A stretch of DNA of 64,000 nucleotides from contig JAJZRQ010000003.1 of NCBI GenBank assembly GCA_021802585.1, positions 2,048 through 66,047 on the forward strand. The letters are read 5' to 3'. This document shows, piece after piece, positions 14,765-59,710 of this stretch; the first letter of the stretch is position 1, and each line of letters starts with the position of its first letter. Source of the DNA: Chloroflexota bacterium (GTDB lineage: Bacteria > Chloroflexota > Limnocylindria > Limnocylindrales > CSP1-4). A program made the position numbers and the translations under genes. Below the pieces are notes generated by a model, which made no database searches, was not told where the DNA came from, and was given only the letters and a program-made list of their open reading frames with translations.

Positions 14765-15532
14765 ATGGACGACAGAAACACGACCGTCGCGACCGCGGCC
14801 GGGCCAGCGATCGGCGGCGAGCGCGCCGATCCGCGGCCCCGCCCCCCGGTCGAAGAGGTCGGCGATGTCGCCCTTGCCGACCTCTTCGCGGAGCCAGGCT
14901 GCCCGCTCTGCCGGCTCCGCGAGCGCTCGGCGCGTCGCTTCGTCGGGTCGTTCCTCTGGGAGAGCGTGACCGACGTCGACTTCCGCGAGCGCCTCGCCCG
15001 GGGGCGCGGGTTCTGCCCAGAGCACGGTGGGCTCGTCCTCGCGATCGACACCGCGGCGGAGGGGACACCCGTGGGCAGCGCGATCCTCCTCGAGTCGATC
15101 CTGCGGCTCCGCCTCGCCGACCTCGAGGACCGGGGCCGCCGGGCGCCGCGGCCGCGGCGCGGCCGACGCGCGGGGGATCCGGGGGCCGTGGATTGTCCCG
15201 TCTGCGAGCAGGTGGACGTGGCGGTCGCCGGCGCCTCGGCGCGCATCCTCGACCTCCTCCGTCTTCCCGCGTGGCGCGCGACGCTCGCCGCCGCCGAGCC
15301 GTGCATCCCCGACCTCGAGAGCCTCGACCGCCTCGCCTCCGCGCGCCGGACGGCGGCGTGGGCAGAGGTCGCCGCCGCCCAGCGCGCGCGGCTCGTCGCC
15401 GTCGCGGATCGGCTCGCCGGCCTCGTCGCGCACAGCGCCCACGACCGCCGGCACCTGCGGACGCGCTCCGAGGTCGCGGCGGTGGGCGAGGCCGCGGCGC
15501 TCCTCGGCTTCCGGGCGTCGACCGATGGCTGA
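14765..15532 (+). CDS. Cys-rich protein with CxxC...GFCxxH module(s), DUF6062-like, function unknown
   Basis: The translation has CPLC followed 37 residues later by GFCPEH. A second CPVC is followed by a degenerate EPCIPD. Composition is natural after the ATG at 14765, and the stop overlaps the next gene's ATG. Confidence 0.6.
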   Translation: MDDRNTTVATAAGPAIGGERADPRPRPPVEEVGDVALADLFAEPGCPLCRLRERSARRFVGSFLWESVTDVDFRERLARGRGFCPEHGGLVLAIDTAAEGTPVGSAILLESILRLRLADLEDRGRRAPRPRRGRRAGDPGAVDCPVCEQVDVAVAGASARILDLLRLPAWRATLAAAEPCIPDLESLDRLASARRTAAWAEVAAAQRARLVAVADRLAGLVAHSAHDRRHLRTRSEVAAVGEAAALLGFRASTDG

Positions 15533-16868
15533 CCCGACGAGCGGCACGGCGGCGGCGGTGGGCGTCGAGGCACGGGCGTCGACCGGCATGGCGACGGCGG
15601 CGGGCGTCGAGGCACGGGCGTCGAGCGGCACGTCGGCGGCAACCGGCGCGCGGTGGCTCAACCGGAACGTCGCCGCGATGGGAATCACGAGCCTCTTCTC
15701 AGACGCCAGTCACGAGACGGCGACGGCGGTCCTGCCGGGGTTCCTCGGGGTCCTCGGCCTCCCGCCCGTCGCCCTCGGCGTCATCGAGGGCGCCTCCGAC
15801 GCGCTGGCGAGCTTCGTGAAGCTCGGGTCCGGCTGGATCGGCGACCGGACCGCCAGCCGCTGGGGCATCGCCGTCGTCGGCTACACGCTCACCGGGATCA
15901 TGCCGCTCGGGCTCGCTCTCGCCGGCTCGTGGCCGGTCGTCCTCGGGGCGAAGCTCGTGGGGTGGCTCGGCCGGGGGATCCGGGGCCCCGTCCGCGACGC
16001 GATGCTCGCCGCGTCCGTCGCGCCGGAGGCGCGGGGCCGCGCGTTCGGATTCCACCGGGCCGGCGACACGATCGGCGCGGTGATCGGCCCGGCGCTCGGG
16101 GTCGCGGTCCTCGGGGCGTTCGCGGCGACGGCGACCGAGCCCCTCGCGGCGTTCCGCGCGGTCTTCCTCCTCGCGCTCATCCCCGGGATCCTCGCCGCGC
16201 TCACGTTCGCCGTCTTCGTCCGGGACCCGGCGACCGGCAGCCGCTCCACGGGCACGTTCCGGGCCGCCGTCGTCGGACTCCCCGCGCGGTTCCGGCGCTA
16301 CCTCGTCGCCGTCGGCCTGTTCGGGATCGGCGACTTCGCGCCGAGCCTTCTCATCCTCGCCGCGACGACGCTCCTCGCGCCCTCGCTCGGGATCGTCGCC
16401 GCCGGCGCGACCGCCGGGCTCCTCTACGTCCTCCGCAACGCGGTCTACGCCCTCGGCGCGTACCCTGTCGGCGCCCTGAGCGACCGGACGGGGCGCCCGG
16501 TCCTCCTCCTCGCCGTCGGCTACGCGCTCGGCGCCGCCGTCGCCGCGGGCACCGCGCTCGCCTTCGCGGCCGCCATCGACGACCCAGCGTACCTCGCCCT
16601 CCTCTTCGTCGGCTCGGGGCTCCTCGCGGCGGTCGAGGACACCCTCGAGGCCGTCTCGACGGCCGAGCTCGCCGGCGACACGGCGCGGGCGACCGCCTTC
16701 GGCCTCCTCGGCACGGTGAACGGCGTCGGTGACCTCGTCGCGAGCGCGGGGGTGGGCCTCGTCTGGACGGTCCTCTCGCCGTTCGCCGCGTTCGGCGCGG
16801 CGACGGTCGCGATGGGGGCGGGCGCGGCCCTCGTCGCCGGCATGGCCCTCCGGGGAGCCGCGCGATGA
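15525..16868 (+). CDS. MFS transporter
   Basis: NRNVAAMGITSLFSDASHE... followed by a 12-TM-like profile. The start is uncertain (ATG at 15525 overlapping the upstream stop, or ATG at 15588). The stop overlaps the MoxR ATG (ATGA). Confidence 0.7.
   Translation: MADPTSGTAAAVGVEARASTGMATAAGVEARASSGTSAATGARWLNRNVAAMGITSLFSDASHETATAVLPGFLGVLGLPPVALGVIEGASDALASFVKLGSGWIGDRTASRWGIAVVGYTLTGIMPLGLALAGSWPVVLGAKLVGWLGRGIRGPVRDAMLAASVAPEARGRAFGFHRAGDTIGAVIGPALGVAVLGAFAATATEPLAAFRAVFLLALIPGILAALTFAVFVRDPATGSRSTGTFRAAVVGLPARFRRYLVAVGLFGIGDFAPSLLILAATTLLAPSLGIVAAGATAGLLYVLRNAVYALGAYPVGALSDRTGRPVLLLAVGYALGAAVAAGTALAFAAAIDDPAYLALLFVGSGLLAAVEDTLEAVSTAELAGDTARATAFGLLGTVNGVGDLVASAGVGLVWTVLSPFAAFGAATVAMGAGAALVAGMALRGAAR
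15560..15624. repeat. 23-bp direct repeat, 42-bp period, at the 5' end of the MFS gene
   Basis: gggcgtcgaggcacgggcgtcga occurs at 15560-15582 and 15602-15624. If translated, it encodes GVEARAS twice. Confidence 0.7.
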
Positions 16869-17890
16869 GCGACGAGACGGCGCTCCTGCCGGCGGCCGAG
16901 CCGCAGGTGGGAGCCGAGCCGCGGGCGACGAGCGCGTCGCGGGAGGGGGTCGCGGGCGAGCGGTTCTGGACGGGCATCCGGGCGGCGGTCGCGAACGCGG
17001 TCGTCGGGGCCGAGCCGGCCCTCCGGCTCCTCGCCGTGGCGCTTCTCGCCGACGGGCACGCCCTCGTGGAGGACGTCCCCGGGACCGGCAAGACGACCCT
17101 CGCCCGGGCGTTCGCCCGCGCCCTCGGGCTCGGCTTCGGGCGGGTGCAGGGGACGCCGGACCTCCTCCCCGGCGACGTCACGGGCAGCAGCGTCTACGAG
17201 GGGGGCACGTTCCGCTTCGTGCCCGGGCCGATCTTCACGAACGTCCTCCTCGTCGACGAGGTGAACCGGGCGACGCCCCGCACGCAGGCGGCGCTCCTCG
17301 AGGCGATGCAGGAGCGCCAGGTGTCGGTCGACGGGGAGACCCGCCGGCTGCCGGAGCCGTTCCTCGTGCTGGCCACCCAGAACCCGATCGAGCTCGAGGG
17401 GACGTTCGCCCTTCCCGAGGCCCAGCTCGACCGCTTCCTCGTCCGGATCGAGCTCGGCTACCCGTCCGAGGACGCGGAGCTCGAGATCGCCGCCCGCTAC
17501 CAGGCCACGGACGAGCCGCTCGAGCGGGTCGAGGCAGCCTTCGCCCCGCCCGACCTCCGCGCGCTTCGCGAGGCCGCGCGGACAGCCGTCGTCGGCGACG
17601 AGGTGGCCCGCTACCTCGTGGCCCTCGTCCGGCGGACGCGCGGGCACCCCGACCTGCGCCTCGGGGCGAGCCCCCGGGCGAGCGTCGCCCTCTACCGGGC
17701 GAGCCAGGCGTGGGCGACCCTCGACGGCCGCCGGTTCGTCCTCCCCGACGACGTCGCGGCCGTCGCCCCGGCCGTCCTCTCCCACCGCATCCTCCTCGAC
17801 ATCGACCGGGAGCTCCGGGGCGCGACGACAGCGGCGGTGGTCGCCGACGTCCTCGCGGACGTGCCCGTCCCGATCGTCCGGGCACGATGA
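16865..17890 (+). CDS. MoxR-family AAA+ ATPase
   Basis: Walker A EDVPGTGKTTLA, Walker B LLVDEVNRATPRTQAALLEAM, and LVLATQNPIELEGTFALPEAQLDRF are hallmark MoxR motifs. Confidence 0.9.
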   Translation: MSDETALLPAAEPQVGAEPRATSASREGVAGERFWTGIRAAVANAVVGAEPALRLLAVALLADGHALVEDVPGTGKTTLARAFARALGLGFGRVQGTPDLLPGDVTGSSVYEGGTFRFVPGPIFTNVLLVDEVNRATPRTQAALLEAMQERQVSVDGETRRLPEPFLVLATQNPIELEGTFALPEAQLDRFLVRIELGYPSEDAELEIAARYQATDEPLERVEAAFAPPDLRALREAARTAVVGDEVARYLVALVRRTRGHPDLRLGASPRASVALYRASQAWATLDGRRFVLPDDVAAVAPAVLSHRILLDIDRELRGATTAAVVADVLADVPVPIVRAR

Positions 17891-17921
17891 AGGCGGCGAT
17901 CGCCGGCAGGGCGGTCGGGCG

Positions 17922-19154
17922 GTGAGCCCGAGCGTCGCTGTCGGGCTCGTCGTGATCGCCGCCGGCGCGCTGGGCGGCGTGCCGGGGGTCGCGATCCTCG
18001 GCGCCCTCGCGGTCACCATTTCCTGGCTCTCCGAACTGTGGAGTCGCCACGGGCTCGCCCGGGTCACGTACACGCGCCGCCTGACCCGCGACCGCGCGGT
18101 GTGGGGCGACCGGGTCGCCCTCGACGTCACGGTCCACAACGCGAAGCTCCTCCCGCTCGGCTGGCTCCAGGCCGACGACTTCGCCAGCGAGTCGCTCGTC
18201 GTCGAGGAGCGGCCGCTCCTGCCGAGCGACCGGCCGGGCCTCGGGATCCTCCGGAACGTCTGGGCCCTCGGCCCGTTCGAGCGGGTGGACCGGCGGGTCC
18301 ACGTCGTCGCCGACCACCGCGGCCGCTACGAGCTCTCGCGGGTCGCGCTCAGCGTCGCGGACCTCTTCGGGCGCGCCGTCGCGACCGCGGAGTCGACGCA
18401 GCCGGCCCACCTCATCGTCCGGCCGCGGACCGTCCCGGTCCGGTCGGAGGCCGCGAGCGTCACCCTCGAGGGGGCGCGCCGCGCCCGACGCGGGCTCCAC
18501 GAGGATCCGGCGCTCTTCGCCGGCGTCCGCCCGTTCCAGCCGGGCGACTCCCGGCGCCGGGTCCACGCCCGCGCGTCCGCCCGCGTCGGGCGGCCCGTGA
18601 GCAAGCGGTTCGAGCCCCCGATCGCGCGCGACGTCGTCGTCGCCCTCGACGTGCAGACCCACGAGGGACCGCACTGGCTCCTCGCGTACGACGAGGACGT
18701 CATGGAGTCGCTCGCCGTCACCGCCGCCTCGCTCGCGCGGCGGCTCCTCGCCGACGGGGCCGCCTGCGGGCTCGTCGCGAACGGCTGGACATGGTCGCCG
18801 GCCCACACCGCCGTCGTCGCTCCCAGGGCGGGGCAGGAGCAGCTGACGCGGATCGCCGACATGCTCGGGCGCCTCAGCTCGATCCCCTCGCTCCCGTTCG
18901 AGGACGTCCTCGCCGGCCTGCCCGCGCGCGTCCCCGGCGGGGCACTCGTGTGGATCGTGTCGTCGCGCGACGTCGCGGCGCTCGGCGGGGTGCTCCGGCG
19001 GCTCCGCGCGGCCGGGTTCGAGCTCCGGCTCGTGGCGCTCGGGCCGCACGCGGCCGCCCACGCCGCCCGGGCGCGGCGGCTCGGGATCGAGGCGGTCGTC
19101 GCCCTCCTGCGACCCGACTGGAGGTCGTGCGATGCGGTCGCCCTCGCGAGCTGA
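17922..19154 (+). CDS. DUF58 (vWA-like) protein, MoxR partner
   Basis: The motif GLHEDPALFAGVRPFQPGDSRRRVHARASAR is the DUF58 signature (e..eF.g.R.Y.pGD..r.IdW..sAR). N-terminal TM helices are present, and the gene sits directly after MoxR. Confidence 0.8.
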   Translation: MSPSVAVGLVVIAAGALGGVPGVAILGALAVTISWLSELWSRHGLARVTYTRRLTRDRAVWGDRVALDVTVHNAKLLPLGWLQADDFASESLVVEERPLLPSDRPGLGILRNVWALGPFERVDRRVHVVADHRGRYELSRVALSVADLFGRAVATAESTQPAHLIVRPRTVPVRSEAASVTLEGARRARRGLHEDPALFAGVRPFQPGDSRRRVHARASARVGRPVSKRFEPPIARDVVVALDVQTHEGPHWLLAYDEDVMESLAVTAASLARRLLADGAACGLVANGWTWSPAHTAVVAPRAGQEQLTRIADMLGRLSSIPSLPFEDVLAGLPARVPGGALVWIVSSRDVAALGGVLRRLRAAGFELRLVALGPHAAAHAARARRLGIEAVVALLRPDWRSCDAVALAS

Positions 19155-20484
19155 CCTCGGCGACCGGCTCGTCGGCCTCCTGCCCCCCGGCGCCGTGGCC
19201 GTCGCCGAGGGCGCCTGGATCGCCGTCGTCCACGCGGCCGTGACGGTCGGACTCCTCCACGGCGCAGCGGGGCCCGGCGTCGTCGCCTTCGCCGCCGCGG
19301 CCGGGCTCGGGATCGTCGCCGCGCGGCGGGCCGCGCCCGCCACGCCGGCCGGCGCGGCCTGGCGGGGAGCCGCCATCGCGGCGGCCGGTCTCGCGGGCTG
19401 GGCGGCCGATCCCGCCGTCCAGGGGTCCCTGGCGGCCGGAGCGCTGCCCGCGTCCACCGCCGCCGGGGCCACGGGACTCCTCCTCGCGCTCGCCGCCTGG
19501 CGCGGGACCCGCCACCGGGAGGCCACGGCCGACGACCTCGCCGTCGGGACGCTCCTCGCGCGAGGCGTGCCGGGCCTCGCGGTGCCGTGGATCATCGGGA
19601 GCGCATCGCCGGCGACCCGCGGGGCGTTCGGTGCGGAGGCGCTGCCGGCGACGCTCCTGTTCGTTGCCGGCGGGCTCGCGGCGATCGGCCTCACCCGGCT
19701 CGACGCCGTGAGCCGCGCGGCGGGCGTGGACTGGCGCGGACGGCGAGCATGGCCGGCGCTCATCGGCGGGGTCGTCGTCGTCGTCCTCGCGCTCGGCGTC
19801 CCCGCGGCGCTCCTCCTCGACGTCCCGCTCGCGACGCTCGTCCGGTTCGTCACCGATCCGCTGGCCCACGCCGGGACGGCCGTGTCGGACGCCCTTCGAG
19901 GGGTGATCGGGAGCGGAGGGTCGGCCGCCCCGCCGGCGCCGGCACCGGGCGTGCCGGGCCCGCCGGCCGCCGGAGGTGGCGCGGCCGTCACGGGCATCCT
20001 CGTCCTCCTCCTGGCCGCCGTTGGCGGCGTCGCCGCGGCGGCGGTCGCCCTCCTCGTTCGCGACCGCGAGTCGCGCGGCCCGCGCGTCCCGCCGCCGGCT
20101 CCGGAGCCGGCGGAGTCGCGGCGGCTCGTCCTGCCCGCGCTCCGCTTCCGCGCCCCGCGGCCGCGCCTGCCGCGGTTCGCCCGGCTCGCCGCCGAACGCC
20201 CGCGGACCGCCGCCGACGCGTATGTCCTGCTCGTCGAGGACCGCGCGACCGACCCGGCGACCGCGCGGCGCGCGGGGGAGTCGCCCTCCGCCCACGCCCG
20301 GCGCCTCCGGGCGGCGGGACGCGGCGCGCTCGGCCTGGACCTCCTCGCCGCGGACTACGCGCTCGAGCGGTACGCAGGCGTCCGGCTCACGGCGAGGGAG
20401 ACGCGGCGCGCCGCCGCCCGCTGGCGCGCGCTCCGCCGGCGGTGGCCGGTCGGTCGGCCGGCCGGCCGACGGGTGGCTCCGTGA
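19132..20484 (+). CDS. Polytopic membrane protein with C-terminal DUF4129-like domain
   Basis: Several Ala/Gly-rich TM segments are followed by a C-terminal segment ...ESPSAHARRLRAAG...LDLLAADYALERYAG..., as in DUF4129 proteins that follow MoxR/DUF58. It overlaps both neighbours. Confidence 0.6.
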   Translation: MRSPSRADLGDRLVGLLPPGAVAVAEGAWIAVVHAAVTVGLLHGAAGPGVVAFAAAAGLGIVAARRAAPATPAGAAWRGAAIAAAGLAGWAADPAVQGSLAAGALPASTAAGATGLLLALAAWRGTRHREATADDLAVGTLLARGVPGLAVPWIIGSASPATRGAFGAEALPATLLFVAGGLAAIGLTRLDAVSRAAGVDWRGRRAWPALIGGVVVVVLALGVPAALLLDVPLATLVRFVTDPLAHAGTAVSDALRGVIGSGGSAAPPAPAPGVPGPPAAGGGAAVTGILVLLLAAVGGVAAAAVALLVRDRESRGPRVPPPAPEPAESRRLVLPALRFRAPRPRLPRFARLAAERPRTAADAYVLLVEDRATDPATARRAGESPSAHARRLRAAGRGALGLDLLAADYALERYAGVRLTARETRRAAARWRALRRRWPVGRPAGRRVAP

Positions 20485-21998
20485 CCGAGGCCGGGCGCGC
20501 GGCCGCGCCGGCCGGCGTCGACGCGCCGTCGCCGGCGGACCCGCCGGCGCCGGTCGCACGCTGCGTCGTCTGTTCGTTCGTCGCCGACGCGGTCGACCGG
20601 CGGCTCTTCTTCCTCTTCGCCGAGTCGATCGGCGACGGCTGGTTCCTCGAGGCGATGCGCGCCGGCGGCTTCTGCCTCCGGCACGCCCGCCGGGTGTTCC
20701 GCGCGCCGGACGTCGTGGGGATGACGATCCCGATCCGGGAGCTCCTTCGCGGCTGGCGCGCCCGACGGGCCGGGGCGGCGCGCCCGGCCGGCCCGACGCC
20801 GTGGCTCGGAGGGCCGTGCCCGCTCTGCGTCACGGCCGCGTGGGCCGAGGCGCACGCCCTGTGGATCCTCGACGAGCCGGTCGTCCGCAAGGCCGCGGGC
20901 ACCCTCGGGGCCGATGGGCCGGTCTGCCTCCCCCACCTCGACCGGCGCCTCGACGCGCGGGACCCCTGGCGGATCGCCGTCGTCGCCGGCGCGATCCGGG
21001 CCCGGATCGGAGCGGCCGGGGAGGCCGGCCCCGATGCCGCGCTCGGGGCGGTCGCCGGCGACGACGTCGACCGGGTCATCCGGGGCGCTCCCGCGCCCGA
21101 GGGCGGGGACGGCGAGGCGGCGCGTCCTGGGCCGGCTGCCCCGGCAACCCTGACCGGCGCGCCAGCTGCGCCGGCGCGCAACGATGCCCGCGCCCGTGAG
21201 CGGGGCCCCGACGCCCTCGGCCGGGCGCTCGACGCGGGAGCCTGCCCGGCCTGCGCGGCGAGCGCGGCCGCGGCCCGCTGGCCGATCGCCTTCCTCGCCT
21301 CGGCCGCGCCGGGGGAGGACGTCCGCGACCTCGACCGTCTCTGCGTGCGGCACCTCCACGACGCGGCCGCGACGTCGCCCGCGGCAGCCGCCCGTGCCGT
21401 CGCCGGGTCGCTCCGCGGCTGGTGGTCCGCCATCGAGGTGCTCCCCGCTGTCGCGGACCTCCCTCCCCGGTCGCTCGCGGCGCGGGCGCGATGGCTCGCC
21501 CCGCGGGCCCTGCCGCCCGGCCGACGCCGCCCGGCGCTCGGGACGCTCGCGGAGGGGCTCGCCCGGCCGGACCGCGCGCCCCGGCGGGCGATCGCCGCGG
21601 CGCGCCTCCGCCGCTCGCGCGCGTGCGTTGCGTGCGAGGCGGCCACGACGGCCGCGGATCGCTCCCTCGCGCTCCTCGGGGCGCTCCTCGCCGGGCGCCC
21701 ATGGCGCGACCGCTTCGAACGCTCCGACGGCCTCTGCCTCCGCCACGTCGAGATCGCGCTCGGCGTCCTCGACCCATCCGCGGCGGCGGTCGTCGGCGCC
21801 GTCGCCGACGCGCGGGCGGCGCGCCTCGAGTGGGCCCTCGACGAGTCCGTCCGCCGCAGCTCGTGGTCGGTCCGCTACGAGCCGGAGGCGCCCGAGTCGG
21901 GAGCGTGGGTCGAGGCCTTCGTCTTCGTCCACGGGGAGGGCGTCCGGCGGCGGGACCTCCTCGGCCCCGACGGCGAGGGGCGGGAGCCGGCGGCGTGA
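20481..21998 (+). CDS. 505-aa protein made of four CxxC...CxxH modules (DUF6062-like repeats), unknown function
   Basis: Modules: CVVC...GGFCLRH, CPLC...GPVCLPH, CPAC...RLCVRH, CVAC...DGLCLRH. The GTG start overlaps the upstream stop (GTGA at 20481-20484) and the stop overlaps the next start (GTGA at 21995-21998). Confidence 0.65.
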   Translation: MTEAGRAAAPAGVDAPSPADPPAPVARCVVCSFVADAVDRRLFFLFAESIGDGWFLEAMRAGGFCLRHARRVFRAPDVVGMTIPIRELLRGWRARRAGAARPAGPTPWLGGPCPLCVTAAWAEAHALWILDEPVVRKAAGTLGADGPVCLPHLDRRLDARDPWRIAVVAGAIRARIGAAGEAGPDAALGAVAGDDVDRVIRGAPAPEGGDGEAARPGPAAPATLTGAPAAPARNDARARERGPDALGRALDAGACPACAASAAAARWPIAFLASAAPGEDVRDLDRLCVRHLHDAAATSPAAAARAVAGSLRGWWSAIEVLPAVADLPPRSLAARARWLAPRALPPGRRRPALGTLAEGLARPDRAPRRAIAAARLRRSRACVACEAATTAADRSLALLGALLAGRPWRDRFERSDGLCLRHVEIALGVLDPSAAAVVGAVADARAARLEWALDESVRRSSWSVRYEPEAPESGAWVEAFVFVHGEGVRRRDLLGPDGEGREPAA

Positions 21999-23329
21999 CC
22001 GCAGCGACCGACGCGCCCCTCCTCCTCGAGGTCGAGGACGCCGCCGGGCCGGGCGTCGACTTCGAGCGGGTCGGGCACGAGCTCGTCGGGCGGCGCGTCC
22101 GCCGGGGCGGCCTGTGGCTCGGGTTCGACCGCGGGGCCGTCCTCGAGACCGACGACGGGGCGGGAACGCGCCTCGCCGCGGTCGTCGCCCTGCCGGCCTC
22201 GACGCACGCGGGCTGCCGGCTCGAGGCGGAGCCGGCGGGCGGATGGCTCGCCGACGGCCGCCTCGTCGTCGTCGCGCGGCTCGCCGGCGCCCCCTCGCCC
22301 CTCCCCGCGCTCGCGCGCCTCGCCGCGGGCGTCCCCGAGGACGCGGCGTGGCTCGACGCGGCCGCCGTCGGCCGCGAGGTCCAGCACGCCCGGCAGCGAT
22401 TCCGCGAGCGCCGCGCCCATGCCCGGATCCTCGGCGGGCGGGCCTGGCACGGCGCCGGGCACGGCGCCGGGGCGAGCGTCGAGGCGAGCCGCTTCACGAC
22501 GCCGCACTCGGCCGCCGAGTACCGCCTCGACGGTCTCCCGCAGCGCTTCCTCCGGGGTCTTGCCGGCCTCCTCGACGACGACGAGCGGCTCCTCTACGCG
22601 ATCGAACGGCCGGAGGACCGGGACGCCGGGATCGTCGCCCGCACGTTCCGCCGGGAGGACCGGCGGGCGGCGCTCCTCGCCCTCACCGACCGCCAGCTCC
22701 TGTGGGTCGTCGACCATGCCGACCCGGACCGCTTCCTCGGCGATTGGGGCGTCGACGTCGAGGTCGTCCCCGTCGAGCGGATCACCGCGGTCGACGTGCT
22801 CCCCGGCCCGGGGTCGGGCATCGCGGTCGCGACCGACGGCGGGCGGCGCGCCTACCGGCTGCCGGCCGAGCTCGGCGCGGAGATCGCGGTCCTCGCGCGC
22901 CTCATCCGGCGGTTCGTCGCCGCCGCGGACGAGTCGCCGCTCCGCCGCCTCTACGGCGTCCCGGCGGTCGAGCCGGAGGAGGGCCCGCTCGACGCGTTCG
23001 GCCAGGCGGCCGAGGCCCGCGCCGCCGTGGCGGCGGAGCGGCGGGCGGTGCCGGTCCTCGGCGCCTTCTACGACCCGCGCCGGCCGGGCGTCCGGGGCCC
23101 GTCCCTCGTCGTCCTCCGCGAGGACGCGGTCGCGCTGCGCTCCGCGGCCGCGGTCCGGAGCGTCCGGCTCGACGACGTGGCGGCCCTCGGGATCACGCTC
23201 TCGGCTCTTGTCGGGCGCCTCGTCGTCCGAGGGCGGACGGAATCGCTCGACCTCCGCTTCCCAGCGCCGCTCTCGACCGGCGCGGCGGCATGGGTCCGGT
23301 CGGCCCGGCGGGCGCTCGCGAACCGCTGA
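21995..23329 (+). CDS. 444-aa hypothetical protein, terminal gene of the MoxR operon
   Basis: The start is translationally coupled. Composition is natural (for example ERLLYAIERPEDRDAGIVARTFRREDRRAALLALTDRQLLWVVDHADPDRF and ITAVDVLPGPGSGIAVATDGGRRAYRLP), suggestive of repeated PH/GRAM-like beta-sandwich units. I saw no recognisable catalytic motif. Confidence 0.55.
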   Translation: MTAATDAPLLLEVEDAAGPGVDFERVGHELVGRRVRRGGLWLGFDRGAVLETDDGAGTRLAAVVALPASTHAGCRLEAEPAGGWLADGRLVVVARLAGAPSPLPALARLAAGVPEDAAWLDAAAVGREVQHARQRFRERRAHARILGGRAWHGAGHGAGASVEASRFTTPHSAAEYRLDGLPQRFLRGLAGLLDDDERLLYAIERPEDRDAGIVARTFRREDRRAALLALTDRQLLWVVDHADPDRFLGDWGVDVEVVPVERITAVDVLPGPGSGIAVATDGGRRAYRLPAELGAEIAVLARLIRRFVAAADESPLRRLYGVPAVEPEEGPLDAFGQAAEARAAVAAERRAVPVLGAFYDPRRPGVRGPSLVVLREDAVALRSAAAVRSVRLDDVAALGITLSALVGRLVVRGRTESLDLRFPAPLSTGAAAWVRSARRALANR

Positions 23330-23363
23330 CCGCGCCGCGCGCCGCGTCGTGCCCGGGGCGATC

Positions 23364-23999
23364 TCACGACGCCTCGGCCTCCTCGCCGCGCCAGGCCTCG
23401 AGCGCCTCGCGGCCGATGAGGGCCGTCATCGCGAGGGCGGCGAGCGGATCCGCCCACCACGCTCCGACGAGGGCGTTCGCACCGATCCCGATGATGAGGA
23501 AGACGGAGAGCCAGAAGCAGGCGTCCGTCTGGAATGCGTCGGCGGCCATCGCCCGGCTGCCGAGGGCGACGCCGACCGCCCGCTTCGCGCGGGCGAGCCA
23601 GCGCATGACGGCGATCGAGGCGAGCCCGAGGGCGATCCCGACCGGGGACGGCTCCGGGCGCTCGCCGGCGGCGAGCGACGTCACGGAATCCCAGCCGATG
23701 TAGACGGCGAGGAGGACGAGCGAGGCGGCGACGAGTCGCCGGGCCCGCTGCTCGACCTGCTCGACCCGCTCCTCGTCCTCCGCCCGCCGCTCGGCGTGGA
23801 GCCGCCAGATCATCACCGAGCCCGACGCCGACTCGACGAAGCTGTCGATGCCGAAGCCGAGGAGCGCGACGGAGCCGGCGGCGATGCCGGCGGTGACCGC
23901 GACGAGGCCCTCGACGACGTTCCAGCCGACCGTCAGGTACTCGAGCCGCAGCGCCCGGCGGAGGAGACCGCGGCGCTCGCCCGTCGTCGTCGCGGTCAC
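23364..23999 (-). CDS. Short cation-efflux (CDF-related) membrane protein lacking the cytoplasmic C-terminal domain
   Basis: LEYLTVGWNVVEGLVAVTAGIAAGSVALLGFGIDSFVESASG and MAADAFQTDAC resemble TM2/TM5 metal-site helices of cation diffusion facilitators. Only 211 aa. The GTG start overlaps the czcD-like stop (GTGA). Confidence 0.6.
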   Translation of the reverse strand: MTATTTGERRGLLRRALRLEYLTVGWNVVEGLVAVTAGIAAGSVALLGFGIDSFVESASGSVMIWRLHAERRAEDEERVEQVEQRARRLVAASLVLLAVYIGWDSVTSLAAGERPEPSPVGIALGLASIAVMRWLARAKRAVGVALGSRAMAADAFQTDACFWLSVFLIIGIGANALVGAWWADPLAALAMTALIGREALEAWRGEEAEAS

Positions 24000-24889
24000 G
24001 CGTGGTGCCGCTCCTCGAGGCGGCGCCGGTCGGCCGCCTCGAGCTGGAACGTGGAGTGCTCGATGTCGAAGTCGCCGGCGAGGCAGCCGCAGAGCTCGTC
24101 GAGGACGGCCGGGGCCTCCGCTCCTTCGGCAAGCACGACGTGGGCCGAGACGACGGGCACGCCCGAGGTGATCGTCCAGGCGTGGAGGTCGTGGACGTCG
24201 ACGACGCCGTCGAGCCCGCGGATGTGGGCCCGGACCTCGTCGAGGTTCATCCCCTTCGGCGTCGCCTCGAGGAGGACGTCGGTCGCCTCGCGGAGGAGGC
24301 CCCACGTGCGCGGCAGGATGAGGAGCCCGATCGCCGCCGAGGCGACGGCGTCGGCCGCCGTCCAGCCCGTCGTGGCGATGACGACGGCGGCCACGATCAC
24401 GGCCGCCGAGCCGGCGAGGTCGCCGAGCACCTCGAGGTACGCCCCCCGCAGGTTGAGGCTCTCGCCCTGGGCCCGGCGCAGGAGGACGAGCGAGGCCGCG
24501 TTCGCGACGAGGCCGAGGACGGCGACCGCGAGCATGAGACCGGACTCGACCTCCGGCGGCTCCGCGAGGCGACGCCAGGCCTCGACGAGGACGAGGACGG
24601 CGACGCCGAAGAGGAGGACCGCGTTCGCCACGGCGGCGAGGATCTCGACGCGGAGGAAGCCGTACGTCCGGCCGTTCGACGGCGGCCGGCGGGCGAACCA
24701 GATCGCGCCGAGGGCGAGGGCGAGGCCGACGACGTCCGTGAGCATGTGGCCGGCGTCCGCGAGGAGGGCGAGGCTGTTCGCCGCGATCCCGCCGACGACC
24801 TCGACGGCGAGGACCGTCGCGGTGACCGCGAAGACGGCGGCGAGGCGCCGCCGGTGGGCGTCCGCCGCGCTGACGGGGACGTGGGGCAC
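23996..24889 (-). CDS. czcD: Cation diffusion facilitator, CzcD/ZitB-like metal efflux protein
   Basis: IAANSLALLADAGHMLTDV, LEVLGDLAGS and the C-terminal domain DVHDLHAWTITSG...HSTFQLE are typical CDF motifs. Confidence 0.85.
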   Translation of the reverse strand: MPHVPVSAADAHRRRLAAVFAVTATVLAVEVVGGIAANSLALLADAGHMLTDVVGLALALGAIWFARRPPSNGRTYGFLRVEILAAVANAVLLFGVAVLVLVEAWRRLAEPPEVESGLMLAVAVLGLVANAASLVLLRRAQGESLNLRGAYLEVLGDLAGSAAVIVAAVVIATTGWTAADAVASAAIGLLILPRTWGLLREATDVLLEATPKGMNLDEVRAHIRGLDGVVDVHDLHAWTITSGVPVVSAHVVLAEGAEAPAVLDELCGCLAGDFDIEHSTFQLEAADRRRLEERHHA

Positions 24890-24891
24890 GA

Positions 24892-25281
24892 TCAGGCCGA
24901 GGCTTCCGCGGCGTGCGTCGCCGCGTCGAGCACGAGGGCCCGGAGGTGATCGTCGACGAGGCGGTAGCGGGCGATCCGGCCGTCCTTCCGGCGGACGACG
25001 GCGCCGCGCTCGCGGAGCGTCCGGAGCTGATGCGAGAGGGCCGAGACGCTCATCCCGAGGACGAGCGCGATGTCGCAGACGCAGAGGTCCGCCTCCGCGA
25101 TCGCGAGGAGGTGGACGATCCGGGCGCGCGAGGGGTCGGCGAGGGTCGAGAAGAGGTCGGCGACCGCCGTCGAGCCCGCCGGGCCGAGGCTCCGGCCGAG
25201 GAGCGGGCGGATCGCCGCCGGGTGGAGGCACGCGACCTCGCAGCGGTCGGCGTCGATCGCCGAGGCGAACAGTTGAGCCAC
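24892..25281 (-). CDS. ArsR/SmtB-family metal-sensing repressor
   Basis: LADPSRARIVHLLAIAEADLCVCDIALVLGMSVSALSHQLRTLRERGAV is a winged HTH with the LCVCD metal-site motif. It lies immediately upstream of the CDF genes. Confidence 0.85.
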   Translation of the reverse strand: MAQLFASAIDADRCEVACLHPAAIRPLLGRSLGPAGSTAVADLFSTLADPSRARIVHLLAIAEADLCVCDIALVLGMSVSALSHQLRTLRERGAVVRRKDGRIARYRLVDDHLRALVLDAATHAAEASA

Positions 25282-25401
25282 CGCTCAAGTATTGCACGCC
25301 GCCGGCCGCCCCGCCGTGCCGGTGCGGCCGCGCCGCGCCGGTGTCCCGGCCCGGGCCCGCATGCGGTTGCGCGAACCGCGGATGTGGCGGACCCTTCGCA
25401 C

Positions 25402-56617: not shown

Positions 56618-59101
56618 TCAGGGTCGGGCGGCGCCATAGCGACGGATCCCCTCGAGCTTCGTCCGCTTCAGGAGGAGGGCATTGACGGCGACGAGGAACG
56701 AGCTGCCGGCCATGCTGATCGCCGCGATCTCCGGCCGGAGGAGGAGGCCGAGCGACGGGTAGAGGATCCCGGCCGCTATGGGGAAGGCGACCGTGTTGTA
56801 CCCGACCGCCCAGACCAGGTTCTGGCGCATCTTGCGGACGGTGGCCCGGCTGAGGGCGATCGCGCCGAGGACGTCCACCGGGTCGCTCTTCATGAGGACG
56901 ACGTCGGCGGTTTCCACCGCCACGTCCGTCCCGGCGCCGATTGCGATCCCCACGTCCGCCTGGGCGAGCGCCGGGGCATCGTTGATGCCGTCCCCGACCA
57001 TGGCGACGAGCGTGCCGGTGCCCTGGAGCTCTTTCACCTTGTCGGCCTTCTGGCCGGGCAGGACCTCGGCGAAGACGGTGTCGAGGCCCAGCTCGGCCGC
57101 AATCCGATCCGCGGTCGCCCGGTTGTCGCCGGTGAGCATCGCGACCCTCACACCCAGGTTGTGGAGCCGCTCGATCGTCTCTCTCGCTGTTGGGCGGACG
57201 GCGTCCGCGATCGCGATCAGGCCGCCCGGCTCGCCGTCGACGGCGATCCGGATGACCGTGCGGCCGGCCCCCTCGAGCTCCTCGGCCCGAGCGCTCAGGC
57301 CGTCGAACGCGATGCCGCGGTCGCCCATGAGCTTTGCGTTCCCGACGAGGACGGTCCGCCCGTCGACCGTCGCCTCGAGCCCGTGGCCGGGGACGGCGTT
57401 GAAGCCGGTGGCATCGACGAGGGCGAGCCCGCGCTCCTTCGCGGCGTCGACGACGGCGGCCGCGAGCGGGTGCTCGCTCGAGCCCTCGGCCGAGGCGGCC
57501 AGCCGCAGCAGCTCGTCCTTGCTCACCGGATTGCCGGTGCCGACGAGGTCCACGACGCGTGGCTGGCCGACCGTGAGGGTGCCGGTCTTGTCGAAGATGA
57601 CCACTCCGACCTTCGACGCCTGCTCCAGGGCGGTCGCGTTCTTGAAGAGGATCCCGTTGAGCGCGCCGAGGCCGGTGCCGACCATGATCGCCGTCGGCGT
57701 GGCGAGGCCGAGGGCATCCGGGCAGGCGATGATGACGACGGTGATCGCCAGCGTCAGCGCGAAGACGAAGGTCGCGCCACCGATCCAGTACCAGCCGGCG
57801 AACGTGAGCAGGCCGAACACGACAGCGGCGGCCACGAGCCACTGGGCCGCGCGGTCGGCAAGCCGCTGGGCCGGCGCCTTCGAGTTCTGGGCGAGCTGGA
57901 CGAGGCGGACGATCTGGGCGAGCGCGGTGTCGGCGCCGACCTTCGTGGCGCGGAACCGGAACGTACCGGTCTTGTTGATCGTCGCGCCGATGACCGCCGA
58001 GCCGACCGCCTTCTCGAGCGGGACGCTCTCGCCGGTGATCATCGACTCGTCGACGGCGGAGCTCCCGTCGACCACGACGCCGTCGACCGGGATCTTGTCG
58101 CCGGGGCGGATGAGGACGACATCCCCGATGACGACATCGGATGTGGGGATCTCCAGGGGTTCGCCGGCGCGGATGACCGTCGCCTTCGGCGGCGCGAGGT
58201 CGAGAAGGGCGCGGATGGCGTCGGATGCGCCGGCGCGGGCCCGCATCTCGAGCCAGTGACCGAAGAGAACGAAGGCGAGGAGGACGACGGAGGCCTCGTA
58301 GAAGACCTCACCCCGGAAGATGAACGTGGCCGCGACGCTGAAGAGGTACCCCGAGCCCACGGAGAGGGCGACGAGGACACTCATGTCCAGGGTCCGGTTC
58401 CGCAGGGCGCGCCACGCCCCGACGAAGAAGATCTGGCCGCTCCACAGCACCGCGGGCGTCGCCAGGATGAACAGGAGGAGGTTCGGGTCGAGCCCGAATG
58501 GCGTCGCGAGGCGGAGGCCGAACACCTCCGTGGCGAGCGGGGAGTACAGGAAGACGGGGATGGCGAGGACGAGGGCGACGAGGAAGCGGTTCCGCATGTC
58601 GCGGACCATCGCGTCCATGCTCATGCCGGCGCCGTGGCCCATCGCGTGGGCCATCTGGGCCATCTCGCCGACCGCGGCGGGGGCGGCCGCGGCGCGCGGC
58701 ATGGCGTGGCCGGCGTGCTCCGCCGGGGTGGGTGCCGGGGCGACGGACGGCATGGCGTGGCCGGCGTGCTCCGCCGGGGTGGGTGCCGGGGCGACGGACG
58801 GCATGGCGTGGCCGGCGTGCTCCGCCGGGGCGACCGCGACGCCGCCAAGCGTGGCCGGGCGGCCGCCCGACATCACGTGACCTGGCGCCACCTCGCCGCC
58901 GCATGTGCAGCCGAAGCTCTCGATGAGGCCACGGATCCGCTCCGGGTCGAGCCTCGTCTCGTCGTAGCGGACGGTCACGGTCTGCGAGACGGGGTTGACC
59001 TCGGCGTCGGTGACGCCGGCCTGGCGGCGCAGGTACCCCTCGAGCGAGGCTCCCGTGCTCGCGCGCAGCAGCCCTGCGGCTTCGAAGATGCCAGTCGTCA
59101 C
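56618..59101 (-). CDS. P1B-type heavy-metal ATPase (CopB-like) with non-canonical CPD transmembrane motif
   Basis: [19 protein letters not shown] and MLTGDN are present. TM6 reads [13 protein letters not shown]; I checked the DNA, and the reverse complement of ggcatccgggcaggc gives GCC TGC CCG GAT GCC. The N-terminus has a CxxC-less HMA-like fold plus His/Met-rich repeats. The GTG at 59101 is preceded by GGGAGGA. Confidence 0.85.
58698..58830. repeat. 51-bp in-frame tandem repeat (2 full copies plus a partial third) in the ATPase N-terminus
   Basis: ggcatggcgtggccggcgtgctccgccggggtgggtgccggggcgacggac occurs at 58698 and 58749, with a partial copy at 58800. On the coding strand it encodes [17 protein letters not shown]. 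Confidence 0.85.
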
Positions 59102-59710
59102 AGGTTCCTCCCCTGTCCGGCCACCCGGGGCTCGCCGGCGATGGAGCGACCCGAGCGCGCCGGCCCGTCCGGCGCGGCCACCCGGTACCGGTTTCGTCCC
59201 ACGCTGCAGCGGGCGACCGAAGCGCTCGTGAGAGCCAGATGAGAATCGCCGCGCCCGTCGTCCTGATGATGCCGGCCATCCGTCTTGATACCGAGCGCTC
59301 ACCATAGTCTCAGGCCCGGGCGCGAGCCTCGCAACCGCCCGCTGAGCCAGGGTGGAGCAGGCCGGCGAAGGCTCGGCCGGTGAGAACCCGCGCATCCCGT
59401 CCGCGTGACGCGTCGGTCGCTTCGCCCGGCGACCCGGCCGCGCCGCCCGGTCCGCTCCCCGACCGGGGGTGGGCGACGGGCCGGCGCACGCGGGCGGCCC
59501 GCCACCCCGGGCCGCCCGCTGCCTCACCTGCCGTCCGCCGAGGGTGCCAGCCCGGCGTAAGCACCTCCACCGTCCGGCTCCGGCCCCGGATCCTCAGGAT
59601 TCGCACAGACGACATTCACGTGGCTCTCAGGCGCGGGGCCTGAACTGCACGGTGGCACAGGTCGGCGTCCGGGGCCGCGCACGGAACGAGACGATGAGAA
59701 GGAGGCTGGG

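Follow-up and report, generated by a model that had tools for sequence, protein, structure and literature searches.

A Chloroflexota protein with four predicted Cys3His metal sites, read as a tandem of two DUF6062 units

Introduction

The C+ isoform of ribosomal protein bS18 is defined by the pattern (CXXC)-(CXXH), and coordinates one structural Zn2+ (PMC10450194). The subject of this report is a protein in which such a pattern is found four times. Its gene occupies positions 20481 to 21998 of a 64,000-nucleotide stretch of DNA from a Chloroflexota bacterium of the Limnocylindrales; this whole stretch is called the window below. Comparison of sequences indicates that the protein is a tandem duplication of a two-module unit catalogued in Pfam as DUF6062 (PF19538), a domain of unknown function.

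Helical proteins that use similar ligands are, of course, known. The TAZ domains of CBP/p300 and the ZAS anti-sigma factors (RsrA) are all-alpha, and their Cys3His zinc sites tie neighbouring helices together. Such helical domains create protein-binding scaffolds or redox switches. Much less can be said of DUF6062 itself. No paper mentioning DUF6062 or PF19538 was found in the literature, and the named records of family members all read "hypothetical protein". Because DUF6062 has no known function, membership in it gives no mechanism. A last point of reference comes from gene order, as MoxR-DUF58 operons are known in Actinobacteria, where their function is unclear (PMC12067865).

The locus resembles each of these in part. 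With bS18 the protein shares the ligand pattern and its spacing, CxxC-x33-(G-x-)CxxH; bS18, however, is an 84-residue rRNA-binding protein with a single site, and the ribosomal gene context is absent here. With the TAZ and ZAS domains it shares an all-alpha (predicted) build and Cys3His zinc-type sites, but not the order or spacing of the ligands (HCCC in TAZ; H-x3-C-x2-C in ZAS). With DUF6062 it shares the same CxxC...G-x-CxxH modules and spacings, differing in that its chain has two units, of which the first has a degenerate tail, joined by a disordered linker. Finally, the gene is translationally coupled to a triad like those of the MoxR (MRP-subfamily)/DUF58/membrane-protein operons. A DUF6062-type member is, however, undescribed in those operons, and four-module genes in the wider family usually stand without MoxR.

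Four modules and their ligands

The gene and its modules are as follows.

20481..21998, forward strand: gene for a soluble, predicted all-alpha protein of 505 residues, with two tandem DUF6062-like units and four Cys3His modules
20562..20684, forward strand: module 1, C28-VV-C31 ... G63-F-C65-LR-H68
20817..20936, forward strand: module 2, C113-PL-C116 ... C149-LP-H152
21243..21353, forward strand: module 3, C255-PA-C258 ... C288-VR-H291
21624..21746, forward strand: module 4, C382-VA-C385 ... G417-L-C419-LR-H422

The original prediction, made from the DNA alone, had described four CxxC...CxxH modules in one protein. The translation bears this out, with one correction: the intervals between CxxC and CxxH are 33, 32, 29 and 33 residues, not 34, 35, 32 and 37 as first given. 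All 12 cysteines of the protein fall inside the four modules. When the protein was shuffled 200,000 times, two or more modules never appeared, against four in the real sequence; a chance origin of the modules is thus excluded.

Conservation is the stronger evidence that these residues bind something. The 16 ligand positions are invariant across seven orthologues that are 39-56% identical, and again in 122 relatives whose mean column identity is 21%, a set pre-selected for having four modules. Alignment of 196 full-length members to the family hidden Markov model (HMM) placed no non-ligand residue at any ligand position. Where a ligand changes, another ligand takes its place (C>D in 14 cases, C>H in 2, H>D in 7, H>C in 2), and the only other deviations are gaps in module 1, in sequences that are shorter at the N-terminus. 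The third ligand of module 2 is one that varies in relatives, being sometimes Asp (13) or His (2).

Ligands that are exchanged only for ligands are, at the level of sequence, the signature of metal binding. The natural reading of this pattern would be one Cys3His metal site per module, four in all, much as first proposed. That proposal had also named what should count against it, namely ligands unconserved in orthologues and segments unrelated to one another. Neither was found.

Two DUF6062 units in one chain

A Pfam scan of the protein at E<=10 returned DUF6062 as its only match (23.4 bits, E 4.6e-5, with a gathering cut-off of 27 bits). The best stretch lies in module 4, where residues 370-425 correspond to profile positions 114-170. 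Among 100 four-module relatives, 90 match DUF6062 at E<=1e-3 and none matches any other Pfam family. Some members pass the cut-off: P0045 reaches 67 bits in two stretches, with residues 21-177 on profile positions 16-177. In P0033, residues 224-397 fall on positions 20-169. A 215-residue protein encoded next to a four-module gene matches positions 19-240.

These coordinates matter, as the DUF6062 profile, 243 positions long, covers two modules and a tail. The internal comparisons made with hhalign on the 122-sequence alignment follow the same division. All four modules are mutually related, as had been supposed, with pairwise E-values from 6e-7 to 2e-16; M2-M4 and M1-M3 align best. The N-terminal half aligns to the C-terminal half (99.4%, E 2e-21) with M1 paired to M3 and M2 to M4. 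An alignment of the two-module DUF6062 neighbours (56 bits on DUF6062 for their representative) matches both the N-terminal half (E 4e-26) and the C-terminal half (E 3e-25), and the tail of these two-module proteins aligns to the tail of the C-terminal half. An earlier internal-repeat test on seven sequences had been weak (best E 7e-6); the 122-sequence alignment is decisive.

Since the profile covers two modules and the halves align, the protein is two DUF6062 units rather than four copies of a one-module unit, and is best described, on these alignments, as a tandem duplication of the two-module unit. The architecture of that unit, two modules followed by a helical tail, is met twice along the chain, although the tail motif is found only in the C-terminal copy. 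The family named in the original prediction was therefore the right one, while the single-module form attributed to it was not. Its further suggestion of a link to the zinc-ribbon clans found no echo: neither the protein nor the 100 relatives matched zf-HC2 or any other catalogued zinc-finger or zinc-ribbon profile in Pfam, and an NCBIfam scan of the protein gave no match.

Nor is the fourfold form the novelty that it first appeared to be. A profile search of 1.84 billion cluster representatives (clusters at 50% identity) found 1637 relatives at E<=1e-3, of which 590 at E<=1e-10. Modules were counted in 156 retrieved proteins, these being the seven orthologues and the best-scoring representatives (the best 150 of the 1637). 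Of the 156, 125 have four modules and keep their spacing very tightly, so that the four-module form is common in metagenomic data and dominant among the best matches. As this layout is common and is partly captured by DUF6062, the protein is a further member of an uncharacterised family. One-module forms (109 to 327 residues, on metagenome contigs) look frameshifted or truncated, and were not counted as a class. The few members of known taxonomy are from Chloroflexota, with one Gemmatimonadales metagenome-assembled genome (MAG) and one from Binatia. The family became visible only in the exhaustive search of representatives: word-indexed searches for homologues, whether started from the single protein or from two alignments, recovered the same 6-7 close orthologues and nothing else.

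A predicted helical fold

Two further features belong to the fold.

21087..21215, forward strand: Ala/Pro/Gly low-complexity linker between the DUF6062-like halves, residues about 203-245
21813..21950, forward strand: C-terminal helical tail, the best-conserved non-ligand motif

An AlphaFold2 model built from the 122-sequence alignment is all-alpha and confident (mean predicted local distance difference test score, pLDDT, 87; predicted template-modelling score, pTM, 0.86). In the model, every CxxC and every CxxH is placed at a helix N-terminus; in module 1 the helices are 29-49 and 66-73. The linker has no secondary structure (pLDDT about 49-62), varies in length among orthologues and carries a weaker codon-position signal. 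Hydropathy analysis gave no convincing transmembrane segment in the protein.

The tail reads W-E-L-x-E-x2-R-K-x2-W-x2-R-x-E-x2-G-x-E-x2-A-W-x-R-A. Its conserved residues are W451, E452, E455, R458, W462, R465, E467, G470, E472, W476, R478 and G485, and R465 is 100% conserved in the 196 members aligned to the family HMM.

Searched with Foldseek against the PDB and BFVD, the model had no match below E 0.3, with a TM-score of about 0.1, and none to zf-TAZ or zf-HC2; the latter two also went unmatched in the Pfam scans of the protein and the 100 relatives. If the model is right, this all-alpha fold would have no solved analogue.

By sequence, bS18 comes nearest. The best PDB matches of the family profile are mycobacterial bS18 proteins, at E 0.005 and 0.027, and a search with a shallow profile likewise gave only marginal bS18 matches. 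Modules 2 and 4 match the CxxC-x33-G-x-CxxH of bS18 in ungapped alignments that include all four ligands; for module 2 the ungapped partner is the zinc site of Mycobacterium tuberculosis bS18. The protein thus has the (CXXC)-(CXXH) zinc pattern of bS18 with the same 33-residue spacing. It has neither significant full-length similarity nor the size (75-90 residues, against 505), and the Pfam scan of the protein gave no ribosomal S18 match. As an analogy, then, bS18 shows that such chemistry has a precedent; it gives neither a family assignment nor evidence of homology.

Proposed role and its alternatives

The protein is probably a cytoplasmic, all-alpha scaffold or adaptor made of two DUF6062 units, holding four structural zinc ions and working with the products of the genes to which its own is coupled. 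Here, each unit would consist of two helix-loop-helix modules, with the C-terminal copy keeping its helical tail. The CxxC and CxxH pairs of each module most likely bind one structural Zn(II) through Cys3His, as in bS18 C+, and the four zinc clamps would brace a rigid helical scaffold. The conserved tail, charged and aromatic, is the likely working surface, and the protein as a whole is probably a non-enzymatic adaptor or regulatory subunit. Candidate partners at this locus are the MoxR AAA+ ATPase, the DUF58 protein, the DUF4129-type membrane protein and a 444-residue protein; in the wider family, the major facilitator superfamily (MFS) transporter and the two-module DUF6062 paralogues may be added.

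The choice of zinc as the metal, the role as a scaffold and the partners are all inferred, and several observations weigh against this picture. The convergence of three cysteines and a histidine on one ion is itself drawn from sequence and predicted secondary structure. The invariant Glu, Arg and Trp of the tail may form a catalytic site instead of an interface. The DUF6062 score of the protein, as noted, falls short of the gathering cut-off. The match to bS18, at E 0.005 over 61 residues, is marginal and owes most of its score to Cys, His and Gly; Foldseek with the model did not recover bS18. Finally, the gene downstream of the four-module gene changes with lineage, encoding the 444-residue protein, a small AAA_16 ATPase or a P-type-ATPase-like protein. 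Because neighbours differ between lineages, a single fixed partner is not established.

A broader view can be put forward tentatively. The sets of two- and four-module DUF6062 paralogues may form a class not described before, of all-alpha proteins that bind several metal ions and have a fold without a counterpart in the PDB; they would serve in the cytoplasm as metal- or redox-responsive partners of transporters and of nucleoside-triphosphatase remodellers. The transporters would be the MFS protein, the Na+/H+ exchanger and the truncated P-type ATPase; the remodellers would be MoxR, the small AAA_16 ATPase and the dynamin-like GTPases. The hosts would be Chloroflexota, Gemmatimonadota and related uncultured bacteria.

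The metal might, of course, not be zinc. Fe-S proteins such as mitoNEET, IscR and NsrR use ligand sets of this kind, and both Cys3His and Cys3Asp sets occur here, in family variants and in the CxxD of the paralogue. WhiB-type Fe-S proteins are all-alpha, as this protein is predicted to be, and some MoxR systems are tied to the maturation of metal cofactors. The four sites might then hold rubredoxin-like iron, or [2Fe-2S] or [4Fe-4S] clusters with a His or Asp ligand, in a sensor of redox state, O2 or NO, or in an electron carrier. We think this unlikely. The neighbourhoods examined contain no recurrent genes for Fe-S biogenesis or redox partners, the Fe-S families of Pfam are unmatched by the protein and its 100 relatives, and the mononuclear zinc site of bS18 C+ is matched by paired two-residue knuckles that stand 29-33 residues from each other, each at the N-terminus of a helix.

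Alternatively, the metal may be zinc that is labile rather than structural. The sites would then be zinc-thiolate switches or a zinc buffer, active in oxidative or zinc sensing, storage or hand-over, and tuning the transporters encoded nearby. Transporters are indeed the most recurrent neighbours in the wider family (MFS 21, Na+/H+ exchanger 16, P-type-ATPase-like 5), and Usp genes add 18 loci. Just downstream in the window lie two convergent cation-diffusion-facilitator (CDF) efflux genes, one with a zinc-transporter dimerisation domain, and in anti-sigma factors of the RsrA type Cys3His zinc sites do serve as redox switches. Against this, the CDF genes are absent from orthologous loci, no Zur or zinc-uptake genes were seen, and the protein has no regulator or DNA-binding domain. 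The near-absolute conservation of the 16 ligands suits structural sites equally well. A labile role seems to us quite improbable.

That the open frame is a mere product of extreme G+C, a long frame with Cys and His patterns arisen by chance, might be suspected of a region that is 81.6% G+C with long overlapping open reading frames (ORFs) in several frames, but conservation has already refuted that idea, with full-length orthologues that are 39-56% identical and a family of 1637 representatives. Codon-position GC correct for a gene, the shuffling result and the confident structure prediction speak against it as well.

The protein is thus encoded by a real gene. Codon-position GC is 0.83/0.66/0.94, a pattern that matches all neighbouring genes. 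The gene's GTG start codon and the stop of the preceding gene overlap (GTGA); its own stop is in turn overlapped by the GTG start of the gene for the 444-residue protein. G+C in the window runs from 71 to 82%, with many open frames, and long ones (up to 920 residues) at 17235-19997 (reverse), 20355-21932 (reverse) and 21184-23703 (forward) overlie real genes. These fail the codon-position GC pattern, arise from a G+C content of about 80%, and are unfit for annotation as genes.

If the probable reading as a structural zinc scaffold holds, the family would offer a new helical multi-zinc scaffold; were the sites redox-active or labile, it might offer a sensor of a new kind, linked to transport or to the MoxR chaperones, few of whose clients are known. 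In either case the protein is not unique, but points to a large, unstudied family of predicted metalloproteins (the 1637 representatives), with a confidently predicted fold that would lack a solved analogue, near-absolute conservation of ligands and recurrent neighbourhoods. Nothing so far amounts to a mechanistic surprise.

The gene cluster

Seven genes, tightly packed, run in the same direction here. The four-module gene is the sixth, and is coupled to its neighbours by 4-nucleotide overlaps. The other six are these.

14765..15532, forward strand: two-module DUF6062 paralogue, 255 residues (found by tblastn with the DUF6062 protein of metagenome locus L015, by a regular expression for the modules and by Pfam)
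15525..16868, forward strand: MFS transporter (Pfam MFS_1; 80% identical to the MFS protein of locus L092)
16865..17890, forward strand: MoxR-type AAA+ ATPase (Pfam AAA_3, 1.9e-57, and AAA_lid_2)
17922..19154, forward strand: DUF58-like protein with an N-terminal hydrophobic segment (DUF58 at 21.8 bits, below the cut-off of 23.4)
19132..20484, forward strand: multi-pass membrane protein with several hydrophobic segments, of DUF4129 type by orthology
21995..23329, forward strand: 444-residue protein without a Pfam or NCBIfam match

The paralogue carries the modules CPLC...GFCPEH and CPVC...PCIPD, the last ligand of the second being Asp instead of His. It passes the DUF6062 cut-off of 27 with 27.7 bits, and its GC at third codon positions is 0.92. 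Its stop may overlap the start of the MFS gene, which is uncertain (ATG 15525, GTG 15558 or ATG 15588) and would do so if it is ATG 15525. The stop of the MFS gene overlaps the start of MoxR. An NCBIfam scan of the MFS protein assigned no substrate class.

The DUF58-like protein has orthologues, 54-72% identical, in the same position. The membrane protein has no Pfam match of its own; its DUF4129 label comes from the L112 protein, which is 47% identical and matches PF13559 (DUF4129). The stop of its gene overlaps the start of the four-module gene.

The order MoxR, DUF58, membrane protein, four-module protein, 444-residue protein is conserved in Chloroflexota MAGs, including Ca. Limnocylindrales, Anaerolineaceae and others. 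In L111 and L112 the string is longer: Na+/H+ exchanger, DUF190/CBS, MFS, MoxR, DUF58, DUF4129, the four-module protein, a 437-residue protein, MutS_V, MutS_V and enolase. The gene for the 444-residue protein follows the four-module gene in 8 distinct Chloroflexota loci. About 110 residues at the N-terminus of that protein give weak PDB profile matches to inorganic pyrophosphatases (E 0.024-0.93, best 3d63), and the rest looks by eye like two PH-like beta domains. A single-sequence AlphaFold model of it was unusable (pLDDT 38).

A PADLOC scan for anti-phage defence, run on the four-module protein, the paralogue, MoxR and the DUF58, membrane and 444-residue proteins, returned nothing.

The two CDF genes stand in tandem at 23364-25297 (reverse strand), convergent just past the cluster. 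Both match Cation_efflux and one also ZT_dimer. Since they are absent from orthologous loci, a link to the four-site protein is doubtful.

Neighbourhoods in the wider family

A degenerate DNA pattern of the tail motif retrieved 90 metagenome loci, in which the neighbouring ORFs were clustered. The recurrent neighbours, by number of loci, are the following.

Two-module DUF6062 paralogue: 24 loci, mostly directly upstream with a 28-51-nucleotide overlap, sometimes with a second or third paralogue
MFS transporter: 21 loci
Usp: 18 loci
HEAT-repeat/double-zinc-ribbon protein: 17 loci
Dynamin-like GTPase: 16 loci
Na+/H+ exchanger: 16 loci
Enolase: 15 loci
Small AAA_16 ATPase: 14 loci, directly downstream
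MutS_V-like ATPase: 8 loci
HAD-like protein: 7 loci
Truncated P-type-ATPase-like protein: 5 loci

Several other recurrent clusters were rejected as antisense shadow ORFs, and the recurrence of enolase was taken as synteny of the lineage rather than as a sign of partnership. In L113, the reading frames of the MFS and four-module genes overlap.

One member, P0112 (L018:3037-5466, 809 residues), has HEAT repeats fused N-terminally to a four-module unit. Together with the adjacent HEAT genes, this fusion hints at an interaction in the manner of a Rosetta stone. A four-module ORF of similar length, 826 residues, is found at L068:3-2483.

In some loci (L038, L050, L058, L073, L081 and L095) three DUF6062 paralogues surround the four-module gene, one of about 210 residues upstream, one of about 335-364 residues downstream and sometimes one of about 245-273 residues farther upstream. 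Such a locus has at least eight Cys3His modules, which suggests a hetero-oligomer.

The P-type-ATPase-like protein, about 510-560 residues long, is encoded downstream at L055:3274-4803 (reverse), L073:11853-13535 (forward) and L058:7064-8746 (forward). It keeps the DKTG and GDGTND motifs, with seemingly one C-terminal hydrophobic segment, and is a distant relative of a full-length P-type ATPase in the window at about 56618-59593 (reverse). Recurrent gene pairs were also seen, at L111/L112:12780-15961 (forward) and L001:1-2119 (forward). Pairs of proteins of about 510-550 residues that have only the ATPase domain V of MutS adjoin the cluster, and dynamin-like GTPases likewise recur as pairs in other loci.

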